Shown one piece after another: positions 13,659 through 59,658 of a stretch of 64,000 nt of DNA (position 1 is its first letter; the number at the start of each line of letters is the position of its first letter). The stretch comes from an uncultured Fidelibacterota bacterium (GTDB lineage: Bacteria > Fidelibacterota > Marinisomatia > Marinisomatales > Marinisomataceae). The DNA lies in the NCBI GenBank assembly GCA_902526795.1, contig CABZMF010000001.1:280733-344732 (forward strand), given 5' to 3'. The notes below the pieces were generated by a model. It was given only the letters and a program-made list of their open reading frames with translations, made no database searches and had not been told where the DNA came from. Position numbers and translations under genes: made by a program.

Positions 13659-15554
13659 ATGAAGAATCAAAAAAACAACAAACCCAACCAAAAAAAGGCA
13701 TCTTCGGGCCCAAGTTCACTACTTATTTGGGCATCAATTATACTTTTTATTATTGCATCATTTACATTTCTGCCAGATGAATCAGCTAATGAAGTTGAAA
13801 TATCTTACAATACTTATAAAGAATTACTTTCTGAAAATAAGATAAAAGAAGCTTCCATTGAAAATGATAATTCTTTTCATGGAGAACTTTTTGAACCTGA
13901 AAACTTAACAAATAAAAATGGTGCGGAATTTTTAGATAGAATACTATTTGTTGTTTATTTACCTTCAGATTATTCAGATCAGATTGCCTTATGGGATGAG
14001 AAAAAAATTGAATATAATTTTGAAGGTGAGAAAATTGATTGGACAGCATGGTTATTAGGCTTTGCGCCATGGATATTGCTGATAGCATTCTGGTTATTTT
14101 TGATTAGAAGAATGCAAAGTTCTGGTAGTGGAATGAACAATGTTTTTAGTTTTGGAAAAAGTAAAGCAAAAGTTTTTTCTGGCAATCAAAAGAAAGTTAA
14201 GTTTAAAGATGTTGCTGGATGCGTTGAGGCTAAAGAGGAGCTTCAGGAAGTAATAGCTTATTTAAAAAGCCCTAAAAAATTTGAAAAACTTGGCGGAAAA
14301 ATTCCTAGGGGTGTTTTATTAGTTGGCCCACCTGGAACAGGTAAAACTCTATTAGCAAGAGCAGTAGCTGGAGAATCAAATGTACCTTTCTTTAGTATAA
14401 GTGGTGCGGATTTTGTAGAAATGTTTGTTGGAGTTGGCGCATCAAGAGTTAGAGATCTTTTTGAGCAGGCTAATAAAAATCAACCTGCAATTGTTTTCAT
14501 AGATGAACTAGATGCTGTCGGAAGGCAAAGGGGAGCAGGTTTAGGAGGAGGTCATGATGAAAGAGAGCAAACTTTGAATCAACTTCTTGTTGAGCTCGAT
14601 GGTTTTGAGAATTCTAACAGTGTAATTGTTATGGGAGCAACAAATAGGCCTGATGTCCTAGATTCAGCATTATTGAGACCTGGAAGGTTTGATAGGCAAG
14701 TTGTTGTAGATGTACCAGATTTAAATGGAAGACATGATATTCTTAAGATTCACACAAAGAATATAAAAATAAAACCAAAAACAGTTAAGCTGTTAGATAT
14801 TGCCAAAGGTACACCCGGAATGGTTGGTGCTGATTTAGCAAATTTAGTAAATGAGGCTGCACTACTTGCATCCAGGAAGAGAAAAACATATGTAGACAAC
14901 GGAGATTTTCAAGAAGCTCAAGATAAAGTTTTAATGGGAGTTCAAAGAAAAAGTATGGTTTTATCTCATCATGAGAAAAAAGTAACAGCGTATCACGAAG
15001 CTGGTCACGCTGTTGTTGCTTTGTTTTCTCCTGAAGCTGACCCTGTTCATAAAGTAACAATTATTCCAAGGGGTAGAGCTCTAGGAGTTACAATGCAACT
15101 TCCAATTGATGAAAAGCATGGCTACTCTAAAACTTATATTTTAAGCAGATTAGCTGTTATGATGGGAGGAAGGGCTGCTGAAGATCTAATTTTAAATGAA
15201 ATAACGACTGGTGCGTCCAATGATATTGAGCGTGCAACAAGCATAGCAAGGAGAATGGTCTGCGAATGGGGAATGAGTGATAAACTTGGACCAATGGCTT
15301 TCGGAAAAAAGAATGAAGAAATTTTCTTAGGTAGAGAAATTCAATCTCACAGAGATTACAGTGAAGAAACTGCCCAAAAGATTGATCACGAAGTCGTATC
15401 CATCATTAAAAATGCTCAAGATTCTGCAAAAAAAATATTAGAAAATAATATTGAATCATTACACCTTATGGCTGAACAATTGCTTGAGCACGAAACAATA
15501 GATGAATCAGATATTAAAGTCATAATGTCTGGTAAGAAAATCAAAAAAAAATAG
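13659..15554 (+). CDS. ftsH: ATP-dependent zinc metalloprotease FtsH
   Basis: 'GPPGTGKT', 'IVFIDELDA' and the zinc site 'HEAGHA' are present, with two N-terminal TM segments. Confidence 0.97.
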
Positions 15555-22391: not shown

Positions 22392-23518
22392 AAATTTATT
22401 TATTAATCGCTAAAAGATTTCTATTTCCAAGAAATGATTTTCGTTCAAATACGATTAATTTTATATCATTTATTGGTCTTTTCATTGGCGCTGCTGCAAT
22501 AGTGTTATCTGTTTCTGTACTTAATGGTTTTCAAGGAATTTTACAAACTGAAACTAAAAAAATTTATGGTGATTATTTGGTTGAAAATATAAGCAATGCT
22601 GGTTTTTTTAATGATTTAAATATAGATAATGAAAATTATTCAATTTTCAAGGAGAATGAATTTCTAATTGTATCTAATAAAAAACAGAACTTAATTGAAT
22701 TTAAATCTGTATCTAATGAATCTTTGAATGATTTTTACGAACTTGATTTACAAAATAATTTCAAGGCATTATCCAACGAAGAGGTAATAATTGGTAATTT
22801 GCTTGCAAATCGACTAAATGTTGATATTGGAGATAGCATTCAATTAATATCTAAAGATTTTAAACTTAATCCCTATAGTCTTCCTGATATTTATGAGTTC
22901 AGGGTTGCAAATATTTTTTCAAATAGAATTTTAAGAGCTAATGATTTTTTAGTATTTGGAGTAAATAAAGAAATTTTCAAAAAAGCGAATCTCTCTGCAG
23001 AGATAAATGGAAATATTGGAAGCATTAATGATTCATCAACAACATTCTTATCTTGGAAAGATAGAAATCGTCAGCTTTTTGAAGCAACTGAAATTGAGAA
23101 AAAAATAACTTTTTTTACTTTATTGTTAATTATTATAATCGCCTCATTTAATCTATCGTCATCAATCATGCAGATTTCATCAAAAAAAATAAGGGATCTA
23201 GCAATTTTTTTATCAATTGGTATGAAAAAAAATGATATCAAAAAAATATTTATAATTTACAGTTATTTAATCGGGCTTTCTGCATTATGTGCAGGCATTC
23301 TTTTTGCTTTATTAGTAATTTTATTACAAAATAAATTATCATTAATAAAATTATCTCCTGAATTTTACTTAGTTGATACTTTACCAATGGAAATATTTGT
23401 TTTTGATATAGTACTACTTTTATTTGGTTCAGTATTTTTAATAGGAATTTTTACAAATGTTCCTTTGAGATTCATAAACAATTTGAGTCCTGTAAAAATA
23501 ATTAATAAACAATTATGA
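22388..23518 (+). CDS. LolC/LolE-family ABC transporter permease (second paralogue)
   Basis: It has the same architecture as the preceding gene and 4-nt overlaps on both sides. Confidence 0.75.
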   Translation: MKIYLLIAKRFLFPRNDFRSNTINFISFIGLFIGAAAIVLSVSVLNGFQGILQTETKKIYGDYLVENISNAGFFNDLNIDNENYSIFKENEFLIVSNKKQNLIEFKSVSNESLNDFYELDLQNNFKALSNEEVIIGNLLANRLNVDIGDSIQLISKDFKLNPYSLPDIYEFRVANIFSNRILRANDFLVFGVNKEIFKKANLSAEINGNIGSINDSSTTFLSWKDRNRQLFEATEIEKKITFFTLLLIIIIASFNLSSSIMQISSKKIRDLAIFLSIGMKKNDIKKIFIIYSYLIGLSALCAGILFALLVILLQNKLSLIKLSPEFYLVDTLPMEIFVFDIVLLLFGSVFLIGIFTNVPLRFINNLSPVKIINKQL

Positions 23519-24177
23519 TTGTAGATATAAAAAAACTTAAAAAAACTTTTTTAGATGGAAGTAAAAAACTTCACGTTTTAAAAGATATTAATCTTCAAAT
23601 AGATAAAGGTAGTATTGTAACAATAAAAGGTCCCTCAGGTTCTGGAAAATCAACATTATTAAGTATTATTGGAACCTTAGATAATGCTGATAGTGGAGAA
23701 CTTATCATTAATGGCATTAGTATTAAGGAAAACATCGATATCGATAAGCTTAGAAATAAGAGCATAGGTTTTGTATTTCAATTTCATAATCTAATTTCTG
23801 AACTTACCCTCCATGAAAATGTTAGTCTTCCAAGAATGATAGCCAAAGAACAATTAAACAAAGAGGAGCTAATCGAACTTTTTGAATACTTTAATCTTAA
23901 ACATAGAATGAATTCATTCCCAAATGATTTATCAGGAGGTGAAAAGCAAAGGGTTGCAGTCATGCGTGCTATTATTAATAATCCATCAATTATTATTGCA
24001 GATGAGCCAACAGGAAATCTTGATAAAGAAAATGCATTAAAAATGATGTCTCTTTTTCAAAAATTGAATACGGAAAAAAAACTCACAATAATTATTGCAA
24101 CGCACGATGAGCATATTTTTAATATCGGTCACAAAAAATATCAATTGGTTGACGGTGCTCTTAAATTGGTTCATTAG
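23515..24177 (+). CDS. lolD: LolD-like ABC transporter ATP-binding protein
   Basis: 'GPSGSGKST', 'LSGGEKQR' and 'IIADEPTGNLD' are present. Confidence 0.8.
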   Translation: MIVDIKKLKKTFLDGSKKLHVLKDINLQIDKGSIVTIKGPSGSGKSTLLSIIGTLDNADSGELIINGISIKENIDIDKLRNKSIGFVFQFHNLISELTLHENVSLPRMIAKEQLNKEELIELFEYFNLKHRMNSFPNDLSGGEKQRVAVMRAIINNPSIIIADEPTGNLDKENALKMMSLFQKLNTEKKLTIIIATHDEHIFNIGHKKYQLVDGALKLVH

Positions 24178-24225
24178 TATGACTTAATGGCATATAATTT
24201 GTCAATTATGTCATTAAATATTCTT

Positions 24226-24241
24226 TGGCACCATCTTTGCA
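24226..24241 (+). promoter_or_regulatory. Sigma-54 type -24/-12 promoter element upstream of dnaK
   Basis: TGGCAC-CATCT-TTGCA matches TGGCAC-N5-TTGCW at every specified position. It ends 37 nt before the dnaK ATG, and an AAGGAG SD lies in the predicted leader. Confidence 0.5.
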
Positions 24242-24278
24242 ACTATATAGTTGAAAAAAAATTTTAAGGAGAATTATA

Positions 24279-26189
24279 ATGGGAAAAATTATTGGTATAG
24301 ATTTAGGAACTACAAATTCTTGCGTTGCTGTGATGGAAGGTGGAGAACCAACCGTTATTACAAGTCCTGAAGGTGGTAGAACAACTCCTTCCGTCATTGG
24401 ATTTACAAAGGATGGAGAAAGGCTTGTTGGTGATCCTGCTAAAAGACAAGCAGTAACTAACCCAAAAAATACTATTTATTCAATCAAAAGATTTATGGGA
24501 AGAACCCCTGCCGAAATCAAAAAAGACATTCAAGAGGTGCCTTATAAAGTATCTGTTGATGGAAAAAAAATTAACGTAGAAGCAGATGGTAAAAAATATC
24601 AGCCACAGGAAATAAGCGCGATGGTACTTCAAAAAATGAAACAAATGGCTGAGCAATACTTAGGTACAACTGTATCAGATGCTGTAATTACAGTTCCAGC
24701 TTATTTTAACGATTCGCAAAGAAAAGCTACAAAGGATGCTGGAAAAATTGCGGGTTTAAATGTCAAAAGAATTATTAATGAACCAACTGCTGCTTCATTA
24801 GCGTATGGTTTTGATAAGAAAAAAGATGAAAAAGTTGCTGTATTTGATTTAGGTGGTGGAACATTTGATATTTCTATACTTGATATATTAAATGATGAAG
24901 GCCAAAGTATTGAAGTAAATGCTAGTAATGGTGATGGAAGGCTTGGAGGTGACGATTTCGACCAAAAAATTGTCGATTGGCTTGCTGATGAGTTCAAAAA
25001 AAATGAGGGTATTGATTTAAGAAAAGATCCAATGGCATTACAGAGATTGAAAGAATCAGCTGAAAATGCAAAAAAGGAGCTTTCTTCATCAAAACAATCA
25101 GAAATAAACTTACCATTCATTACTGCTGATTCATCAGGTCCTAAACATTTAAATATGACCTTAACAAGAGCAAATTTTGAACAATTAGTTAGTGATTTAG
25201 TCGAAAGAGTTGTTGCGCCCTGCAAACAAGCTTTAAAAGATTCAAAATTATCACCTTCAGATATCAATGAAGTTATTCTTGTTGGTGGTTCAACTAGAAT
25301 TCCAGCTATTCAGGATAAGGTAAAAGAGATTTTTGGTAAAGAGCCAAATAAAAGTGTCAATCCAGATGAAGTGGTTGCATTGGGAGCTGCTATTCAAGGA
25401 GGTGTTCTTGCTGGTGATGTTGACGATGTTCTATTACTTGATGTAACTCCGTTAACCTTAGGAATTGAAACAATGGGTGGCGTGTCAACTCCATTAATTG
25501 AGAAGAATACTACCATACCTACCCAAAAGTCACAAATTTTTTCAACTGCTGCTGATAATCAACCAATGGTTGAAATCCATGTTGTTCAAGGAGAAAGATC
25601 TCTTGCAAAAGATAATAAAAGCTTAGGAAGATTTCATTTAGATGGAATTCCTCCTGCTCCAAGGGGTACACCTCAAATCGAAGTATCTTTTGATATGGAT
25701 GCTGATGGAATCTTAAATGTCAAAGCTGTTGATAAGGCTACTTCAAAAGAGCAAAGTATTAGAATTGAAGCTCAGAGTGGTTTATCTGAACAAGAAATTG
25801 AAAAAATGGTAAATGATGCAAAAAAGCATGAAGCAGAAGATAAGGCCAAAAAAGAAGAAATTGATACTAGAAATCAAGCTGAACAACTTGCTTTTCAAAC
25901 TGAAAAACAAATGAAGGATTTGGATGATAAGTTATCTGAAGACGATAAAAGTGATTTGAAAGAAGCTTTAGAAAAGCTTAAAAAAGCTAGTGAATCATCA
26001 GTTGTTGAAGATATTAAATCAGAGATGGAAAACCTAAATTCTGTCTGGAGCTCAAAAGCTTCATCAATGTATGATTCTTCTAACGCTAATTCCGAACCAA
26101 AAGATTCTGTTAAAGACTCAGGTTCAAATTCAGAAACAAAAGATGACAAGAAAATTAAAGATGCTGATTTTGAAGTAGTTGAAGACTAG
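24279..26189 (+). CDS. dnaK: Molecular chaperone DnaK (Hsp70)
   Basis: 'GIDLGTTNS', 'DLGGGTFD' and '[11 protein letters not shown]' are present. Length is 636 aa. Confidence 0.98.
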
Positions 26190-26232: not shown

Positions 26233-27432
26233 ATGAATAGTACAATTGTTAAATTCTTAAAGACAGCTGTTAGCGTTGCTGTTGCATTCTTATGCTTTAC
26301 AGTTATTATATTACTAGCTTTTTACTTTTATCTTTCAGATGGAGTTGAGTTTAAGCTTGATAAATCAAATCAAACTTTAAATAGCCTAACAAAAAGATTC
26401 GAACTCGATTTTAAGGAAACTTCTTCAATTTACTTTAAAGCTAGAGAAGAAAATATTGATGCATATATCACATTAGAGGATGTAATAATTAAACGTTCTG
26501 GAAATATTTTAATCAATTCTAAAAATATAACTTTAAATACCACCCTAAATTTTGCTAAAACAGTACAGTTTGTATTTGAAATTGTTTTAAATAATAATAC
26601 AGATTTAAATTTGATTAATCCTGTAAGCATAAAGCTTCAAAATCCAGTTTATAACCTTGCTAGTATTAATAATCAAAAAGCTGAAATTGATAGAAGTGAA
26701 AGATTTTTTCCTGTAATTATTAAAGCTGAAAATGGAATTTTATTTGATGGAGATATAGAAATTGGTCAATTTGACTTAATCTTAAATTTAAACCAATATT
26801 CTGAAAATCCTACCATCGAAAAGTATAAGCTCAGATTAAAATCATCTGAAAACTTTCCTCTTAGTTATATTACTAAGTTTTTCGAAGATGTAGAAAGCAT
26901 TGGAGATTTAAAAGAAGAAGTATCATTTGACATTACTTTAGAAGATGCCAATGTGAATAGTTTTGATTTAACTCAAAAACTTAATGGAATAATTCAAATC
27001 AGAAATACTACATTGAGATTGAAAACTTTTCCAGTTGAATTAAAACCTGAGCCAATTAGAAGATTAGATTTAGATTTAAATATCATAAATAACATTGGAC
27101 AAGCAACTTTAGTTGGAACAGTGTACAATCCTAAAAAAAACTTGGGTCTCCAAACAGAGCCTAACTTACAGATTGGAGGAACTTTAAACTTTGAAGAAAT
27201 TTCGAAACCTGAACTGAATTTAATCGTTAATGGTTATGATATATACTTTGCTAAGCTCGAAAATTTGAACTTAAATGGTATCACGGATTTAACAGTCTCA
27301 ATAATTGGTAAAAATGTATTAGATTTACAGGGTTCCTTAAAGATTAAAAAAAGTAATGGTTTTTTAGTCCCATTAAAAGATACTGAATTTGAAACAAAAC
27401 ATAGAGTAAGAAACGGTTATGAAAAAAAATGA
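26233..27432 (+). CDS. Hypothetical N-terminally membrane-anchored, beta-rich protein (weak AsmA/TamB-like flavour only)
   Basis: It has a single N-terminal TM ('VSVAVAFLCFTVIILLAFYFYL') and an Asn/Leu/Ile-rich repetitive beta-type sequence. It overlaps the moxR start by 14 nt. I recognised no diagnostic motif. Confidence 0.5.
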   Translation: MNSTIVKFLKTAVSVAVAFLCFTVIILLAFYFYLSDGVEFKLDKSNQTLNSLTKRFELDFKETSSIYFKAREENIDAYITLEDVIIKRSGNILINSKNITLNTTLNFAKTVQFVFEIVLNNNTDLNLINPVSIKLQNPVYNLASINNQKAEIDRSERFFPVIIKAENGILFDGDIEIGQFDLILNLNQYSENPTIEKYKLRLKSSENFPLSYITKFFEDVESIGDLKEEVSFDITLEDANVNSFDLTQKLNGIIQIRNTTLRLKTFPVELKPEPIRRLDLDLNIINNIGQATLVGTVYNPKKNLGLQTEPNLQIGGTLNFEEISKPELNLIVNGYDIYFAKLENLNLNGITDLTVSIIGKNVLDLQGSLKIKKSNGFLVPLKDTEFETKHRVRNGYEKK

Positions 27433-28411
27433 ATTAGATAGACTAAATTCTAAAATTCAAAAGAAATCTATTTTTATTGAATCTTTGAGAGAAAACATTT
27501 CAAAAGTTATCGTTGGACAAAATGATTTAATTGATAAGATCCTAATTTCTATAATTTCAAATGGTCATATATTACTTGAGGGCGTACCTGGATTAGCAAA
27601 AACTTTAACAATTAACACGGTAGCTAATTTAATAAATGCTGATTTCAAAAGAATTCAATTTACTCCAGATATGCTCCCTTCAGATTTATTAGGTACACTT
27701 ATTTATAATCAAAAGACGGGAGAATTTAACACGAAAAAAGGTCCTATCTTTTCAAATATTATTCTTGCTGATGAAATCAACCGTGCTCCTTCAAAAGTTC
27801 AAAGTGCTTTATTGGAATCTATGCAAGAAAAACAAGTTACAATTGGAGATAACACTTATAAACTATCAAAACCATTTTTAGTATTAGCTACTCAAAATCC
27901 AATTGAACAAGAAGGTACTTACCCTTTACCCGAAGCACAAGTTGATAGATTTATGATGAAGGTAATTATAGATTATCCCTCAATTGATGATGAAAAAGAA
28001 ATCATTCATAGAGCCAATACTCAAACTGATAGTAAAATAAAATCTGTTATAAAAACAAAAACAATTCTAGATGCACAAAATCTTATTAATGATATATACA
28101 TAGATTCAAAAATCTCAGAATACATTTTAAATATCGTTTTTGCTACAAGAAATCCGAAAGAATATAATTTGTCAAAACTTATCGATTTAATTTCATTTGG
28201 AGCATCTCCAAGAGCGTCAATAAATTTAGTTTTAGCATCAAAAGCTAAAGCATTTATTGATGGCAGAGGTTACGTCATTCCCGAAGATATAAAGTATGTT
28301 GCTAAAGATATTTTGAGGCATAGAATTTTACTTACATATGAGGCTGAGGCAGAGGACATTACTTCCGAGGATATTATTGATCAACTTCTTCAAGAAGTTC
28401 CTGTTCCTTAA
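27419..28411 (+). CDS. MoxR-family AAA+ ATPase
   Basis: 'EGVPGLAKT' (Walker A), 'ILADEINRA' (Walker B) and 'ATQNPIEQEGTYPLPEAQVDRF' are present. Confidence 0.93.
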   Translation: MKKNELDRLNSKIQKKSIFIESLRENISKVIVGQNDLIDKILISIISNGHILLEGVPGLAKTLTINTVANLINADFKRIQFTPDMLPSDLLGTLIYNQKTGEFNTKKGPIFSNIILADEINRAPSKVQSALLESMQEKQVTIGDNTYKLSKPFLVLATQNPIEQEGTYPLPEAQVDRFMMKVIIDYPSIDDEKEIIHRANTQTDSKIKSVIKTKTILDAQNLINDIYIDSKISEYILNIVFATRNPKEYNLSKLIDLISFGASPRASINLVLASKAKAFIDGRGYVIPEDIKYVAKDILRHRILLTYEAEAEDITSEDIIDQLLQEVPVP

Positions 28412-46738: not shown

Positions 46739-49321
46739 ATGTACATGCTAAAAAAACTATTTGTAGTACTTTTGTGTGTTGGTATATCATTTGCTCAACA
46801 TAACCACAGTCATCATAACCATAGCCTTTCTCATAATGAACATGGAGAAGAATATATCAGATGTGCAACAGATGAGCTAGAGCAAGAATTACAGCTTTTA
46901 AGACCAGAGTTTATTGCAGAACGTGACGCACAAATTGAAAAAGCAAGAAAGCTTTTGAGAGAAAACCCTCAATGGAGAACCGATAGCAGTACACAAAATA
47001 CAATATATGTGCCTGTGGTTTTTCATGTTTTATATTTTAATAATGGAGATAATACTTCAGCTTCTCAAATTGGCGCAAATTTTGACCAAATTAATTTAGA
47101 CTTTCAAAATATAAATCCTGATGGCGATGAAATTCCATCAGCCCCAAATCCAAGTGATGCACCCTTCGATCCAGGCATTGATTATAGCCATCAAGCTGTT
47201 AGAGGAACTCACAATGTTGTTTTTGTCGGAGCAGCAGGAGAGACTACGGGAAGTCAACTAATTGAAGGTACTACAATTTTAAGATACCAAATAAATCAAT
47301 CCAGTGTAGGTGGTGTTAGTGATGCGAGCAGTATTGCAGGAAGTACCACTCCTGACCAAAGTTCATGGCCTGGAGGTTCCGGAGGATATAAAAATGGTTA
47401 TCTTAATATTTACCTTGCACCATTAACCGGTGGATTGTTGGGTCAAGCTTATCTTGGTTTTCCTGAGTCTGTTGTTCTTAACGATAGTGTTGGTTCAGTT
47501 GAAAGTCCTGGTACAGCTGGAGGATACAATAGAGGAAGAACTTTAACTCATGAGTTAGGTCATAATTTTACATTTAATCATATTTTTAATTCTAACAACT
47601 GTGGAAATCAACTTTGGAGTGATATCCCTGCTCAATATGTTAACAATCGTGGCGCTAATATCTATGAATGGCCTACTGGAAGTGGAAATTTTTATGGGAG
47701 AGAAGCTGAAAACAGTTGTATTTCTACAAGTGGTAAAGGCGACCAATTTATGAACTACATGGACTATGTATATGATGACCAAATGAGAATGTTTTCTGAG
47801 CAGCAAGCATTAGATGGATATGCATGGGCACAATCAAGAAACTGGGCTCAAGTTGTAAGTGGTGTTAGTACTCAGATTTCATCAAGTGTTTCCTATGCAA
47901 CCTCTGATGATGGGTTTACCGTTGATGTAAACTTTGGAGAACAGGTTTCAGGGTTTACGCAAGATGATTTAGTATTAACTAATGCAATAGTTACAAATTT
48001 CAATGATGCAGATGGAACTAATTTTAGTTTTGATGTAGAAGCTATTGTAGATGGTGAAGTAAAAGTATCAATTGCAGCAAACAGTTGTGTTGGTGTTGAT
48101 TCTGGAAATAGTAATTTTGAATCAAATGAAGTTGTTGTAATTGTAGACAGGGTAGCACCAATAGCTGGATCATTATCAATTGATAATATCCAGGATTCAC
48201 AATATATAACAAAGGCTCCGTCTTTAAACATTTCATTAAATGACTTCACTGATGCTACTAGTGGAGTTGGATTGTATTATGTTTCTGTAGGGCTATCTCC
48301 TCAAGGGCAGGAAATTTTACCATTCACAGCATATTCAGACTCTGGAATAAATTTAAATAATTTAGGTTTGCTTGATTATCAACAATACTATGTTAATGTC
48401 TATGCTCAAGATTTGGTTGGTTTAAATTCTTCGACAGTCAGTTCAACATTTTATTACTTTGGTACTTTACTCGGAGATACGAATAATGACTGGATAATTG
48501 ATTTTGAAGATTATGCAAGTTTCATTTCAAATTTTCCAGGAGTTGATATTGCTCCTGTAACCGGAAGTGCACCATATTTCTTCCCGAACTTTGATGGAGT
48601 TTCTGATGCAAATGATTTAGCAATGTTTGAATCAATGTGGAATTGGTCAATATCTGAAAATGGCAGAACAGTACCAAATTATACAGTTCAAGGCACAGCT
48701 CCATATTTGAGAATATTAAATGGGCAATTAATCGTTAGGTTCCCGCTGGCTGCATCAACAGCTCAGTTTTATTTTGAATACGACACTGAAAAATATTTGA
48801 TTGACTATTTATCAAGTAACCTAAGTAGTAATGTTGTTTTAAGTGCAAATAGTCAAGAGGATGGAATAATTCAAGTTGAAGCAGCAGACTATCGAACTGA
48901 TAGAACAAGTCCATTGGAGATGGCGTTTAGTTTCCAAAACTTGACAGATAACTATGAGTTTATGAGAGTTAGTTATTCTTCATATAGTAAGTCCAATCTT
49001 CTTGTATCTGAAGGATATAACTTAATTCAAACTGCACCATCAACATATCGTTTGTCTCAAAGTTACCCTAATCCATTCACTGAAGGTGGTACAACTATTG
49101 AATTTGATATGCCAGTTACTGAGCAAATTACAATGGTAATACTTGATGTTAGAGGAAGAGTTGTGAGAACATTAATTAAAAATGAGCAGCGATTTGGTTA
49201 TCAATCTGTAGTTTGGGATGCTAAAAATGATGATGGTGATAAAGTTAGTAGTGGTGTCTATTTTTATCAGATAAGATCTAACAACTTTAATGCTGTTGGC
49301 AAACTTGTATTTGTTAAGTAG
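46739..49321 (+). CDS. Secreted multidomain zinc metalloprotease (M43/pappalysin-cytophagalysin-like) with a T9SS-type C-terminal sorting domain
   Basis: It has a signal peptide, a His-rich 'HNHSHHNHSLSHNEH' stretch, the zinc site 'HELGHNFTFNH' with 'QFMNYMDY', a dockerin-like 'GDTNNDWIIDFEDY' and the C-terminal 'YPNPFTEGGTTIEF...SGVYFYQI...KLVFVK'. Confidence 0.8.
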   Translation: MYMLKKLFVVLLCVGISFAQHNHSHHNHSLSHNEHGEEYIRCATDELEQELQLLRPEFIAERDAQIEKARKLLRENPQWRTDSSTQNTIYVPVVFHVLYFNNGDNTSASQIGANFDQINLDFQNINPDGDEIPSAPNPSDAPFDPGIDYSHQAVRGTHNVVFVGAAGETTGSQLIEGTTILRYQINQSSVGGVSDASSIAGSTTPDQSSWPGGSGGYKNGYLNIYLAPLTGGLLGQAYLGFPESVVLNDSVGSVESPGTAGGYNRGRTLTHELGHNFTFNHIFNSNNCGNQLWSDIPAQYVNNRGANIYEWPTGSGNFYGREAENSCISTSGKGDQFMNYMDYVYDDQMRMFSEQQALDGYAWAQSRNWAQVVSGVSTQISSSVSYATSDDGFTVDVNFGEQVSGFTQDDLVLTNAIVTNFNDADGTNFSFDVEAIVDGEVKVSIAANSCVGVDSGNSNFESNEVVVIVDRVAPIAGSLSIDNIQDSQYITKAPSLNISLNDFTDATSGVGLYYVSVGLSPQGQEILPFTAYSDSGINLNNLGLLDYQQYYVNVYAQDLVGLNSSTVSSTFYYFGTLLGDTNNDWIIDFEDYASFISNFPGVDIAPVTGSAPYFFPNFDGVSDANDLAMFESMWNWSISENGRTVPNYTVQGTAPYLRILNGQLIVRFPLAASTAQFYFEYDTEKYLIDYLSSNLSSNVVLSANSQEDGIIQVEAADYRTDRTSPLEMAFSFQNLTDNYEFMRVSYSSYSKSNLLVSEGYNLIQTAPSTYRLSQSYPNPFTEGGTTIEFDMPVTEQITMVILDVRGRVVRTLIKNEQRFGYQSVVWDAKNDDGDKVSSGVYFYQIRSNNFNAVGKLVFVK

Positions 49322-50368: not shown

Positions 50369-53300
50369 TTACAGATCGTATCCTACACTAAGTGAAGAGA
50401 ATCTACCCATTAGTGGCATTAGAAATCCTTCTCTGTGAACAACATCTGTAATGTTGTCTATATTTAATCCAACTGATAAACCATCTACAGATTTAACATC
50501 CCAGTTAGCATTAACACTAACTGTGTAGAAACCTGGTATATGACCTGAATTGTCTTGCCATCCTTCTGCAAAGAAAGAATCTTGATATCTTAAATTTGCT
50601 CCGTATGAGACATTATCATCAGTATGACTAAACCCAGCACCTAATTTGAATTGAGGAGTGTTCATATATACAGTTTCCTCAACACCTTCGAACATTGAAG
50701 TTACTTCCTCATCACTAAGATAAGAACCATTAATAGTGAAGTTCCAATCTGAAGATGGGAAATAAGTTAATGTAGCTTCAATACCATTAAGGTCTAATGG
50801 TTCGGTAAGCTGTTTATAACCCATAATCCAATTACCACCATAGATATTTTGTTCTGGAGTAATTGCACCAATTGGTACTTGACCTATACCAAGTAACATC
50901 TGAGCAGCTAATTCATCTGCACCAGTACCATTTCCATTACCACCCAATGCTGGAGCATCCATAACTGAAATTAAACCGGTAAGATTTGCATCACCAGCCA
51001 TTCCTGTCATTAATGCAGCAACATAACTTTGTGCATCACCAGCAACTGAAACTGAACCTGATAATGATGTTTTTAGTCCAGTTACATAATTATCAACATT
51101 TAATTTATAAACATCTACAGATAATGCCATGTTGTCTGAAACTAAACCATTATATCCAATCTCTGTTTGTGTCCAAGTTGTTTCTTGAATTTTTGGAATA
51201 TCTGGATAGTTAGTTGAAGGGTCAACTACATTGAATCCTAAATCTGTCACAACATTACCAAAACTACTTGGCATTGCAGTTGCAGCTAAACCTAGAAGTG
51301 CCTGTGCAGCAGCACCAGCTTGTGCAGCTCCATAAGCAGCAGCGCCTGCAACATCTCCTGTTGCAGCTGCATAAGCAGCTCCTACAGCTTGTCCATAACC
51401 GCCTACAAGTGCAGCACCATTATCACTAGCTAAAAACAATCCTGCAGTGATAGGAGCCCATACACCAAATGCGGCAGCATTAATTGTACTATTATTAAGA
51501 GCATAATTAGTATTTACATCTAGCCCTAGTGCTGTAGACCAATTTGATCTAAATGTTGGAGTACCATTGGCATCTCTATCATAAGTCCAACCAGTTGTAG
51601 TTGAACCCATAGCTTTAATCTGGAAATCTGGATTGAATGGTAACACTACTCCAGTTGGATTAGTTGCGCTAGTAAAATCAATTCCAAAAACATTACCGTA
51701 TACGAAGTCTCTACGAACAGCAATATCTAGATTTTTAGTAAAGTTTCCAGGAAGGTCAATATTTTGACCATATGTTAAACGAAAACTTCCTCTAACGTCA
51801 TTTGGTGACCAAACCATTCCAAACTTAGGAGCAAAAACACCATCAGTTCCTATATCTTCTAAATAGTTATTTTGATCGTATCTACCAGTAGCTACAACTT
51901 TAAATTCGTCACTAAATTTCTTTTCATATGAGTAGTAAAGTCCCATATTATCAAAGTTATCAATATCCTCGTTTTTACCATTAATAGTTCCATTTGTTTC
52001 TGGAGTTCTGCTTAATACGTCTAAGCCTAATAAAAGCGATTGGTCATTTTTTAATTCAAGAGCATGTTGAAGTTGAAATGCAGTATTTTTAGACTGATCG
52101 TAAATAATATTTCCTGTTGAAAGGTTATATGTAGTTTTCTGATCATTTACATTTGAGAATAAGTTAACAAATAAGTTACCTCCTAAAATGTCTTGTCTAA
52201 AATAAGAAACTTGCATTTGATACAACCATGCATCGTCTGAATGTGCTCTTCCAATACCGGTAAATTCTAATGCACTAATATTTCCAGCTCTTAAATTAAC
52301 TGTAAGATTAGATTTTAGATCAGGACGAAACACAGTCTTTGAATCAAAGAATGTTGCTTCTGGTGAAAAAGGTTCATCTGCAGAAGCAGTATTAGGTGAT
52401 CCACCAACTGGGTCATTATATCCACCACGTGTATAATCTACATATGGATAAGTTACAGTTTGTTCACCTCTTCTAATTAATAGTGGTTCAAAATAAGTAT
52501 GACCGTCTAAAGCAGCGTCAGCTTGAGTTCTAGGCATATTAGATGCCCAGTCATCAAAAGTAGTATGAGTAACTGTAAATCTTGTAGCAGCTCTACTACC
52601 AATTTGACCTGCAAAACGACCATATAATTTCAAATAATTTCTTTCACCAGCAGTTACTTCAACTCTGGGACCTTGATTGAAAGGAGATTTTGTAAACATG
52701 GAAATAACTCCTTGTTGGGTATCTGGACCATACATAGGTGGCGCAGGACCTCTTAAAACCTCAACTCTTTCAATATCATCGTCTCCAGGAGCCATGAACT
52801 GTAGTAATTGAGCATTAATAACTGGAGCACGTGACCATCTGTTATCAACAACAGCATGAACCGCACCAGTAAAAATACCATTAAATCCTCTTACTGTCAT
52901 ATTTTGTGATTCTAGACCAGTTTTCATTGTTTCAATTCCAGCTTTGTTAGCTAAAATATCTACAAAGTAAACAGCATTTCGTGCTGATAATTCATCAGCT
53001 GAAATAACTTCAACACTAGCAGGGGCCTCAGTTATCAACTCTCTTTTAAGAGAAGCTGATACAACAACTTGATCAAGAACTAAATTTCCTTTTTCAAGAG
53101 TCAAATTAACTGAACTAGAAGCACCACCACTTACTGTAACTGAAGCACTAGCATCATCATATCCAATAAAAGATGCAGTAACAGTGTAAGTACCATCACC
53201 CAGGCCTGAAATTGAGAATGATCCATCTTGATTAGATGAAGCTCCAGCTTCAGTACCTTCAACAGCTACATTTGCTCCAGCTAATGCGTTTCCTTCATCA

Positions 53301-58974: not shown

Positions 58975-59658
58975 TTATTTTGTATCCATCTTAGCAGCAG
59001 CGTAAACAATCATACCAATAAGAATTTTATTTACAAAATCAGCTAAATTGTAAACTTGATTAGTTAGATCCATATCAACTCCACCTGTAGTAAAGTACCC
59101 AAGGAAATAACCTATAGGATAGATTGCCCATCCAAATGTTACAATTTTTTTCATGCCATCAAATGCGTAAGCAGCAGCAGCATTTTTTGAACCTGCATTA
59201 ACTTCAGCAGCTTCACCTGACCAGATTTCTCTTAACATTAATCCCCAGCAAAGCATACCGCCAGCAAAACCAACTACTGGTGTAACTAAAGCGTCTGCAT
59301 TTGCAACATTTACTTCACCTAAGTAACCAAAAATTAACATTAAAACTGAAAAACCTAGTAATCTATTAAGTACACCAGCACTTACAGCTGTGACAGCAGC
59401 AAGTACGATGTAGAATTCTACCATTTGAAGAGGAACAGTGATTAACCAATCAATGTATCTAATTGATACAACATCAGTTGCATCTAAATTACCTCTCATA
59501 TAGTAGTAATGAACCGCAGCGATAAAGCAAACCATACCTGAAACTGTCAATGCAGTTTTCCATTTTGGATTAACATTATCTCTTTCTAGCCATAAGAAAA
59601 GACCAGTTGCGAGTAAAGCCATATTTGTTACAAAAAATGTAAACTCTGTAAAGCCCAT
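58975..59658 (-). CDS. Proteorhodopsin (DTE-motif light-driven proton pump, Gln at the spectral tuning site, so blue-absorbing type)
   Basis: It has seven hydrophobic helices. Helix C reads 'RYIDWLITVPLQMVEFY' and helix B 'AVHYYYMRG'. 'GWAIYPIGYF' is present. Helix G 'YNLADFVNKILIG' carries the Schiff-base Lys. A GAGGT SD lies 9 nt upstream. Confidence 0.93.
   Translation of the reverse strand: MGFTEFTFFVTNMALLATGLFLWLERDNVNPKWKTALTVSGMVCFIAAVHYYYMRGNLDATDVVSIRYIDWLITVPLQMVEFYIVLAAVTAVSAGVLNRLLGFSVLMLIFGYLGEVNVANADALVTPVVGFAGGMLCWGLMLREIWSGEAAEVNAGSKNAAAAYAFDGMKKIVTFGWAIYPIGYFLGYFTTGGVDMDLTNQVYNLADFVNKILIGMIVYAAAKMDTK

Follow-up and report, generated by a model that had tools for sequence, protein, structure and literature searches.

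The window, namely the whole 64-kb stretch of DNA that was analysed, is densely packed, with about 97.5% of coding sequence and only about 15 intergenic gaps. The genome had been described as AT-rich in an earlier note on this DNA, in line with a GC content of 27 to 36% along the window and about 30% overall. The gene at the center of this work is dnaK, encoding the Hsp70 chaperone (24279-26189, forward strand, 636 aa), which is recognised by the Pfam HSP70 model with 870 bits and by the NCBIfam DnaK equivalog with 1003 bits, for a cut-off of 648 bits. Its protein cluster bears the name DnaK [Candidatus Marinimicrobia bacterium] and its nearest relatives are found in Marinimicrobia (SAR406, Neomarinimicrobiota) genomes, including a single-cell genome with 93% identity. 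The local gene order is lolE-like, lolE-like, lolD-like, dnaK, an open reading frame (ORF) of 399 aa, moxR and a gene for a DUF58/VWA protein. The last gene of the lolE-lolE-lolD-like unit (23515-24177, forward strand) encodes an ABC ATPase matching Pfam ABC_tran, for which the best NCBIfam model is LolD with 226 bits, under the cut-off of that model.

Downstream, the 399-aa ORF (26233-27432, forward strand) starts 43 nt past dnaK and remains unassigned to any family, as it is without match in Pfam or NCBIfam. It nevertheless follows dnaK syntenically in ten close relatives (L001-L010), with 45-79% identity. A scan for terminators between both genes retrieved no terminator-like site and the ORF may therefore be co-transcribed with dnaK. 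A MoxR ATPase (27419-28411), with a weak PF00158 match of the generic AAA+ type, and the DUF58/VWA protein stand after this ORF. Among other genes of the window, ftsH at 13659 has no intergenic gap, a bacteriorhodopsin-family protein of 227 aa is encoded on the reverse strand at 58975-59658 (Pfam E = 3.6e-37), and a secreted protein of 860 aa is encoded on the forward strand at 46739-49321. Ig-like domains are present in the latter along with a weak match to M43 peptidases, and its C-terminus bears a T9SS sorting domain, an indication that this Marinimicrobia genome encodes a type IX secretion system. The window was extended by about 20 kb through exact-protein look-ups, which added a gene of the sigma-70 family but no rpoN. 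This gene, beyond the right end of the window, encodes an RpoD/RpoS-like factor of 330 aa (L081 10982-11974; L082 10126-11118) and is followed by genes for malate synthase and isocitrate lyase. RpoH (sigma-32) models score much lower on it than RpoD/RpoS-like ones, and it is probably the housekeeping sigma factor.

The gap between the LolD-like stop codon (24177) and the dnaK start (24279) measures 101 nt, as previously stated, and harbors on the forward strand, at 24226-24241, the sequence TGGCAC-CATCT-TTGCA (TGGCACCATCTTTGCA). This is a -24/-12 element of the sigma-54 type that matches the consensus TGGCAC-N5-TTGCW at 11 of 11 specified positions. Its position, its register and its distance to dnaK had all been read correctly in the earlier note: the GG (24227-24228) and GC (24239-24240) doublets stand in the 12-nt register proper to sigma-54, and 37 nt separate the end of the motif from the ATG. 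The Shine-Dalgarno sequence AAGGAG (24266-24271, forward strand), as read from the sequence, lies 7 nt ahead of the ATG within the predicted leader, and its AGGAG is retained in the 11 close relatives.

The element is rare. TGGCAC-N5-TTGCW occurs exactly once on both strands of the window, which agrees with the initial impression that no comparable match was present elsewhere, and a matrix ranking puts the dnaK-gap element ahead of every other site of the window, as it does for nearly all close relatives. The chance occurrence that had been deemed unlikely can be quantified with dinucleotide shuffles, from which 0.02 exact matches are expected. Since one exact match did arise somewhere in 2 of 100 shuffles of the window, a functionless consensus match could be envisaged; however, the observed match has the correct place and orientation within one of the few intergenic gaps (about 15), and its conservation at the same place in 14 other species, detailed below, effectively refutes this explanation, to which we give almost no credence. 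With relaxed patterns, all other matches of the window are intragenic (for instance those at 51269 and 61993), except one at 24188-24203 in the same gap. Over the window and its 20-kb extension, no relaxed match other than the two of the dnaK gap is both intergenic and correctly oriented.

Two relaxed matches were considered as promoters and rejected. The one at 46780, a candidate clpB promoter, sits in the signal peptide of the T9SS-sorted M43-like peptidase and is therefore a chance match. The second, weaker -24/-12-like element of the dnaK gap, TGGCAT-ATAAT-TTGTC (24188-24203, forward strand), was examined as a tandem promoter and rejected as the primary one because its GG, present in the window, L001, L004, L005 and L010, is lost in six of the ten close relatives (L002, L003 and L006-L009). 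Rather than an independent promoter, this element is more likely to be a side effect of the array of TGNCA repeats described below.

Conservation of the motif upstream of orthologous dnaK genes had been proposed as a check. We fetched dnaK loci from 80 species genomes, including 14 Marinimicrobia (L001-L014), and GG-N10-TTG(C/T) was present in 14 of these 14 species, the distance to the ATG being 35-49 nt across the 15 Marinimicrobia when the window is included. In the alignment of the 15 sequences, which has a mean column identity of 62%, the invariant columns are the GG and A of the -24 box, one T of the spacer, the TTG of the -12 box, two lone bases of the leader and the start codon. Synteny is retained in L001-L010, where identity drops to about 60% for LolD and to about 45% for the 399-aa ORF, so that neutral sequence is saturated. 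In L011-L014, the immediate upstream gene is different, lolD lies 2.6 kb away and the adjoining upstream sequence is unrelated, yet the element is still present. The C of the canonical -12 GC is not conserved: the -12 box reads TTGC in 11 AT-rich Marinimicrobia genomes and TTGT in four distant ones, and this position is mostly A or T in Bacteroidota, a departure from the canonical doublet that speaks against the sigma-54 reading. Taken as a comparison of orthologous regions, the conservation as a whole supports this reading.

Other types of promoters were searched in the gap. A sigma-70 scan revealed no correctly placed promoter, its best match having a -10 box that falls on the ATG, and the number of sigma-70 matches in the gap was under the shuffle expectation. 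Similarly, an Rfam scan of the gap retrieved no element. The earlier note had also put forward a promoter of the Bacteroidota (FCB) type, made of TTG (24225-24227), 18 nt and TATAGTTG (24246-24253, forward strand); in that case, TTG would act as -33 box and TATAGTTG as -7 box of a sigma-A promoter of dnaK, and the -24/-12 likeness would be incidental, or both promoters would overlap. Its coordinates and geometry are right, and other observations in the window would suit it. Indeed, an exact TAnnTTTG is found 57-76 nt upstream of four other genes (10556, 53468 on the reverse strand, 59672 and 60362), its density reaches 1.86 per kb in intergenic regions versus 0.72 in coding ones, and the housekeeping-like sigma factor encoded beside the window has, with 330 aa, the short size seen in Bacteroidota. 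The boxes at these four genes and their intergenic density suggest that this genome may use promoters of the Bacteroidota type, and Marinimicrobia may thus rely on Bacteroidota-style housekeeping promoters, four boxes being a very small sample. At dnaK itself, on the contrary, the reading finds no support. The box matches TAnnTTTG at only 7 of 8 positions, with a G at the fifth, the exact TAnnTTTG is found at this site in none of the ten close relatives, TAnnnTTG is kept in two of them (L002 and L007) and TTG is wholly absent in six. Moreover, the invariant bases belong to the -24 and -12 boxes and none to the -7 box. We hence regard a sigma-A promoter as quite unlikely here.

The classical regulators of dnaK were looked for as well. 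A sigma-32-like site (CTTGAAA-N13-17-CCCCATnT upstream of dnaK) was absent from the gap of the window, and one poor match was found among the 15 loci. The CIRCE pattern, searched as TTAGCACTC-N9-GAGTGCTAA upstream of the operon, was absent near dnaK in the window and in L001-L014. It was present 1.7-1.9 kb upstream of dnaK in five non-Marinimicrobia loci (L032, L036, L043, L060 and L072), which include Zixibacteria and a Desulfuromonadota genome, a spacing that fits an hrcA-grpE-dnaK operon. All five are without a -24/-12 element and both designs are therefore complementary across lineages, a distribution in these loci that suggests mutual exclusion between HrcA and sigma-54 control of dnaK.

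The element extends beyond Marinimicrobia. In 40 further dnaK loci of the FCB superphylum, almost all from Bacteroidota (Bacteroidales, Cytophagales, Chitinophagales and Flavobacteriales), the best upstream match to the sigma-54 matrix is TGGCA(C/T)-N5-TTGN, located 23-85 nt ahead of the ATG and often outranking every other match within the 8 kb of the locus. At the -12 box, 27 of these loci have TTGA, 10 have TTGT and one has TTGC. A -24/-12-type element, TGGTACGTGCCTTGCG, was also found at the dnaK locus of a Gemmatimonadales (L028), where it follows TGCCAAATTGGCAC at 2907-2941, and the composite of upstream site and promoter may thus extend past Bacteroidota and Marinimicrobia. The Ignavibacteria and Zixibacteria dnaK loci among those fetched were without a -24/-12 element.

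Experimental precedents are available in Bacteroidota. Sequencing of RNA 5' ends in Flavobacterium psychrophilum defined a sigma-54-type motif, SM4, to which mapped starts of groES-groEL, lon, dnaK, grpE-dnaJ, htpG, clpB, skp and other genes were assigned, and the remFG promoter became less active when conserved SM4 bases were mutated (Guerin et al., 2021, PMC9723704). In the same species, ftsH belongs to the chaperone co-expression cluster (PMC9723704). The SM4 strings of groES (TGGCAT-AATTT-CTGA), lon (TGGCAC-AATCC-TTGA) and clpB (TGGAAT-AACAA-TTGA) given in the supplement (PMC9723704) have the same form as the elements that we detected in silico upstream of FCB dnaK genes. In these strings, the frame of which we checked with a sigma-A example from the same table, mapped 5' ends lie 12-13 nt past the -12 position (12 for lon, 13 for groES). 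Transposed to the window, where the -12 C is at 24240, this sigma-54 geometry would place the dnaK start within 24251-24254 on the forward strand, at about 24252-24253, with a predicted leader of about 26 nt. More broadly, sigma-54 promoters were reported to be enriched upstream of DnaK, DnaJ, GrpE, GroEL, GroES and IbpA genes in Bacteroidota and Planctomycetota (PLoS One 2025, PMC12316311). The same survey, based on KEGG genomes, found rpoN in all FCB phyla sampled, namely Bacteroidota, Chlorobiota, Ignavibacteriota, Fibrobacterota and Gemmatimonadota, and did not include Marinimicrobia (PMC12316311).

The claim that sigma-54 control of the main Hsp70 would be an unusual design thus has to be narrowed. 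It stands against the textbook regulation by sigma-32 or HrcA, but not for the FCB superphylum, since such control is documented in Bacteroidota and predicted for Planctomycetota (PMC9723704, PMC12316311). It is unusual only relative to Proteobacteria and Firmicutes and is therefore to be expected in a member of the FCB superphylum. The dnaK element described here extends the documented FCB design to another phylum, the Marinimicrobia.

Upstream of the element, the gap contains phased repeats. A proximal pair of TGNCA pentamers, TGTCA-ATTA-TGTCA (24200-24213, forward strand), has members beginning 26 and 17 nt upstream of the T in TGGCAC and is a candidate activator site centred near -45 from the predicted start. 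A distal imperfect palindrome, ATGAC-TTAAT-GGCAT (ATGACTTAATGGCAT, 24179-24193, forward strand), begins two bases past the lolD-like stop codon and is a candidate second regulator site; its counterpart in L004 and L005 is perfect (ATGCCATATAGGCAT). When 55 loci were anchored on the T of TGGCAY, TGNCA pentamers were 10-20 fold enriched from -50 to -17, with peaks at -46 and -38 in Marinimicrobia. Of these 55 loci, 23 contain a TGNCA-N3-5-TGNCA pair, where 0.07 would be expected from shuffles and 0.45 from random genomic 70-mers. Their promoter-proximal member starts at -17 +/- 1 (11 cases) or -27 +/- 1 (10 cases), two classes that differ by one helical turn. Beyond the Marinimicrobia, the phased pair was noted among the dnaK upstream regions of L026-L080 and among L087-L099, L110 and L112.

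The recurrence of TGNCA at roughly helical spacing, with the -24 box itself included, raises the question of whether the whole of 24179-24241 might be an array of half-sites (TGACT, TGGCA, TGTCA, TGTCA, TGGCA and TTGCA) for a dimeric factor, such as a heat-labile repressor, with sigma-54 uninvolved and the -24/-12 boxes being merely its last two members. The -12 region is also TGACA or TGTCA in 14 of the 40 Bacteroidota loci, and the -12 C is itself unconserved beyond the close clade, which would both suit such an array. We nevertheless find it very unlikely, given that the spacing between the -24 and -12 boxes is 11 nt versus 8-9 nt in the upstream pairs, that the gap is without a sigma-70-type or sigma-A-type promoter to repress, and that in F. 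psychrophilum both the position of mapped starts past the -12 box, as per sigma-54 geometry, and the effect of SM4 mutations at remFG (PMC9723704) favor a promoter.

The distribution of the pair among promoters is informative. Among SM4 promoters of F. psychrophilum, those of groES, lon and clpB have a TGNCA-like pentamer at -17 or -20, whereas the skp, remF and dxs-upstream ones have none. A scan of metagenomes for the pair together with the -24/-12 element, from which the dnaK-specific spacer base was excluded, returned 28 loci, among which no second Marinimicrobia gene and several chance matches in coding sequence. The composite was found ahead of an Hsp20-like gene in several Bacteroidales-like contigs reaching far enough, ahead of groES in the Bacteroidales-like L097 (Cpn10 E = 1.8e-29), and ahead of rsfS followed by a 651-aa FtsH-like ORF in the Bacteroidales-like L099. 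Altogether, this pattern indicates that the pair marks a proteostasis subset of sigma-54 promoters. An additional case is L107, where at least three tandem copies of TGGCAAAAATGTCAC followed by TGGCACGGTTTTTGC are found at 30-150, with no recognisable chaperone gene downstream; the module of upstream site and promoter may there have been recruited to another role, possibly within a mobile element.

The TGNCA pair is probably the site of an activator of the enhancer-binding protein family. The two pair classes are centred about -45 or -55 from the start, much nearer than classical sigma-54 enhancers, and the repeats could therefore bind something other than an activator. The 10-bp step between both classes suggests contact with the polymerase on a given face of the helix. 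This site is not described in PMC9723704 or PMC12316311, literature searches revealed no heat-shock activator, and a phased TGNCA pair common to two phyla is possibly new. Taken jointly, these observations led us to consider that the pair could be recognised by a single enhancer-binding protein, devoted to heat shock and deeply conserved, within an ancestral sigma-54 proteostasis regulon, a proposal that we hold at slightly below an even chance. The activator would then act unusually close to the promoter, at about -45 or -55, and Marinimicrobia and Bacteroidota (perhaps also Gemmatimonadota, in view of L028) would descend from a common ancestor that already used sigma-54 with this activator, rather than sigma-32 or HrcA, across the whole regulon.

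Genes for the corresponding proteins were searched in the readable sequence. No RpoN box and no GAFTGA signature was found by six-frame analysis in the window, in its extension of about 20 kb (about 84 kb in total) and in 113 loci, and Pfam scans of 30 ORFs of the window revealed neither rpoN nor an activator. A literature search on sigma-54 or on the sigma factor content of Marinimicrobia retrieved nothing. Based on its sequence and conservation, we consider it very likely that the 24226-24241 element is a functional sigma-54 (RpoN) dependent promoter of dnaK. According to this model, the sigma-54 RNA polymerase would bind the -24 GG and the -12 GC in a closed complex unable to open alone, and an AAA+ enhancer-binding protein would open it through ATP hydrolysis. 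This activator would bind the TGNCA pair at 24200-24213, and probably also 24179-24193, their centres being near -45 and -65 from the start. Transcription would begin around 24252-24253 and yield a leader of about 26 nt carrying a strong Shine-Dalgarno sequence, presumably upon stress. The promoter would then be part of a sigma-54 proteostasis (heat-shock) circuit common to Marinimicrobia and Bacteroidota, in which it would replace control by sigma-32 or HrcA/CIRCE. By analogy with Bacteroidota, the host genome may encode a broader sigma-54 regulon of the F. psychrophilum SM4 / cluster B254 type, dnaK being the sole chaperone gene in the readable sequence.

If this model is true, the main chaperone of the abundant, uncultured and streamlined SAR406 bacteria of the ocean is controlled by sigma-54 together with an ATP-dependent activator, and sigma-54 control of chaperones dates from a deep node within the FCB superphylum. 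The novelty is limited by the fact that sigma-54 promoters on FCB chaperone genes have already been published. The promoter and its upstream site could be used to read the stress responses of SAR406 in ocean metatranscriptomes. The most interesting by-product is the common TGNCA pair, because it offers a concrete lead to the heat-shock activator of Bacteroidota, including gut Bacteroides and fish-pathogenic Flavobacterium.

The closest known system is that of F. psychrophilum SM4 (PMC9723704), with which the window shares a -24/-12 element upstream of dnaK. Elements are also present there at groESL, grpE-dnaJ, htpG, lon and clpB, whereas dnaK alone was examined in the window; its -12 boxes are TTGA or CTGA, whereas that of the window is the canonical TTGC; and its starts are mapped 12-13 nt past the -12 box, whereas that of the window, in a different phylum (Marinimicrobia), is predicted. 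In the survey of PMC12316311, the same class of genes is preceded by sigma-54 matches, with enrichment at the phylum level, but no Marinimicrobia was included and no upstream activator site was described. Control of dnaK by sigma-32 or HrcA/CIRCE shares the target gene and presumably the physiological purpose. Unlike in this classical control, the sigma-32 and CIRCE sites are absent upstream of dnaK in the window and in the Marinimicrobia loci. Classical sigma-54 enhancers are located about 80-150 nt upstream, often with looping assisted by IHF. Compared to the enterobacterial sigma-54 promoters glnAp2 and pspA (TGGCAC-N5-TTGCW), the element of the window matches all specified positions and the register, whereas enterobacterial enhancers are distant and the dnaK gap, with 101 nt in all, accommodates candidate sites centred near -45 and -65.
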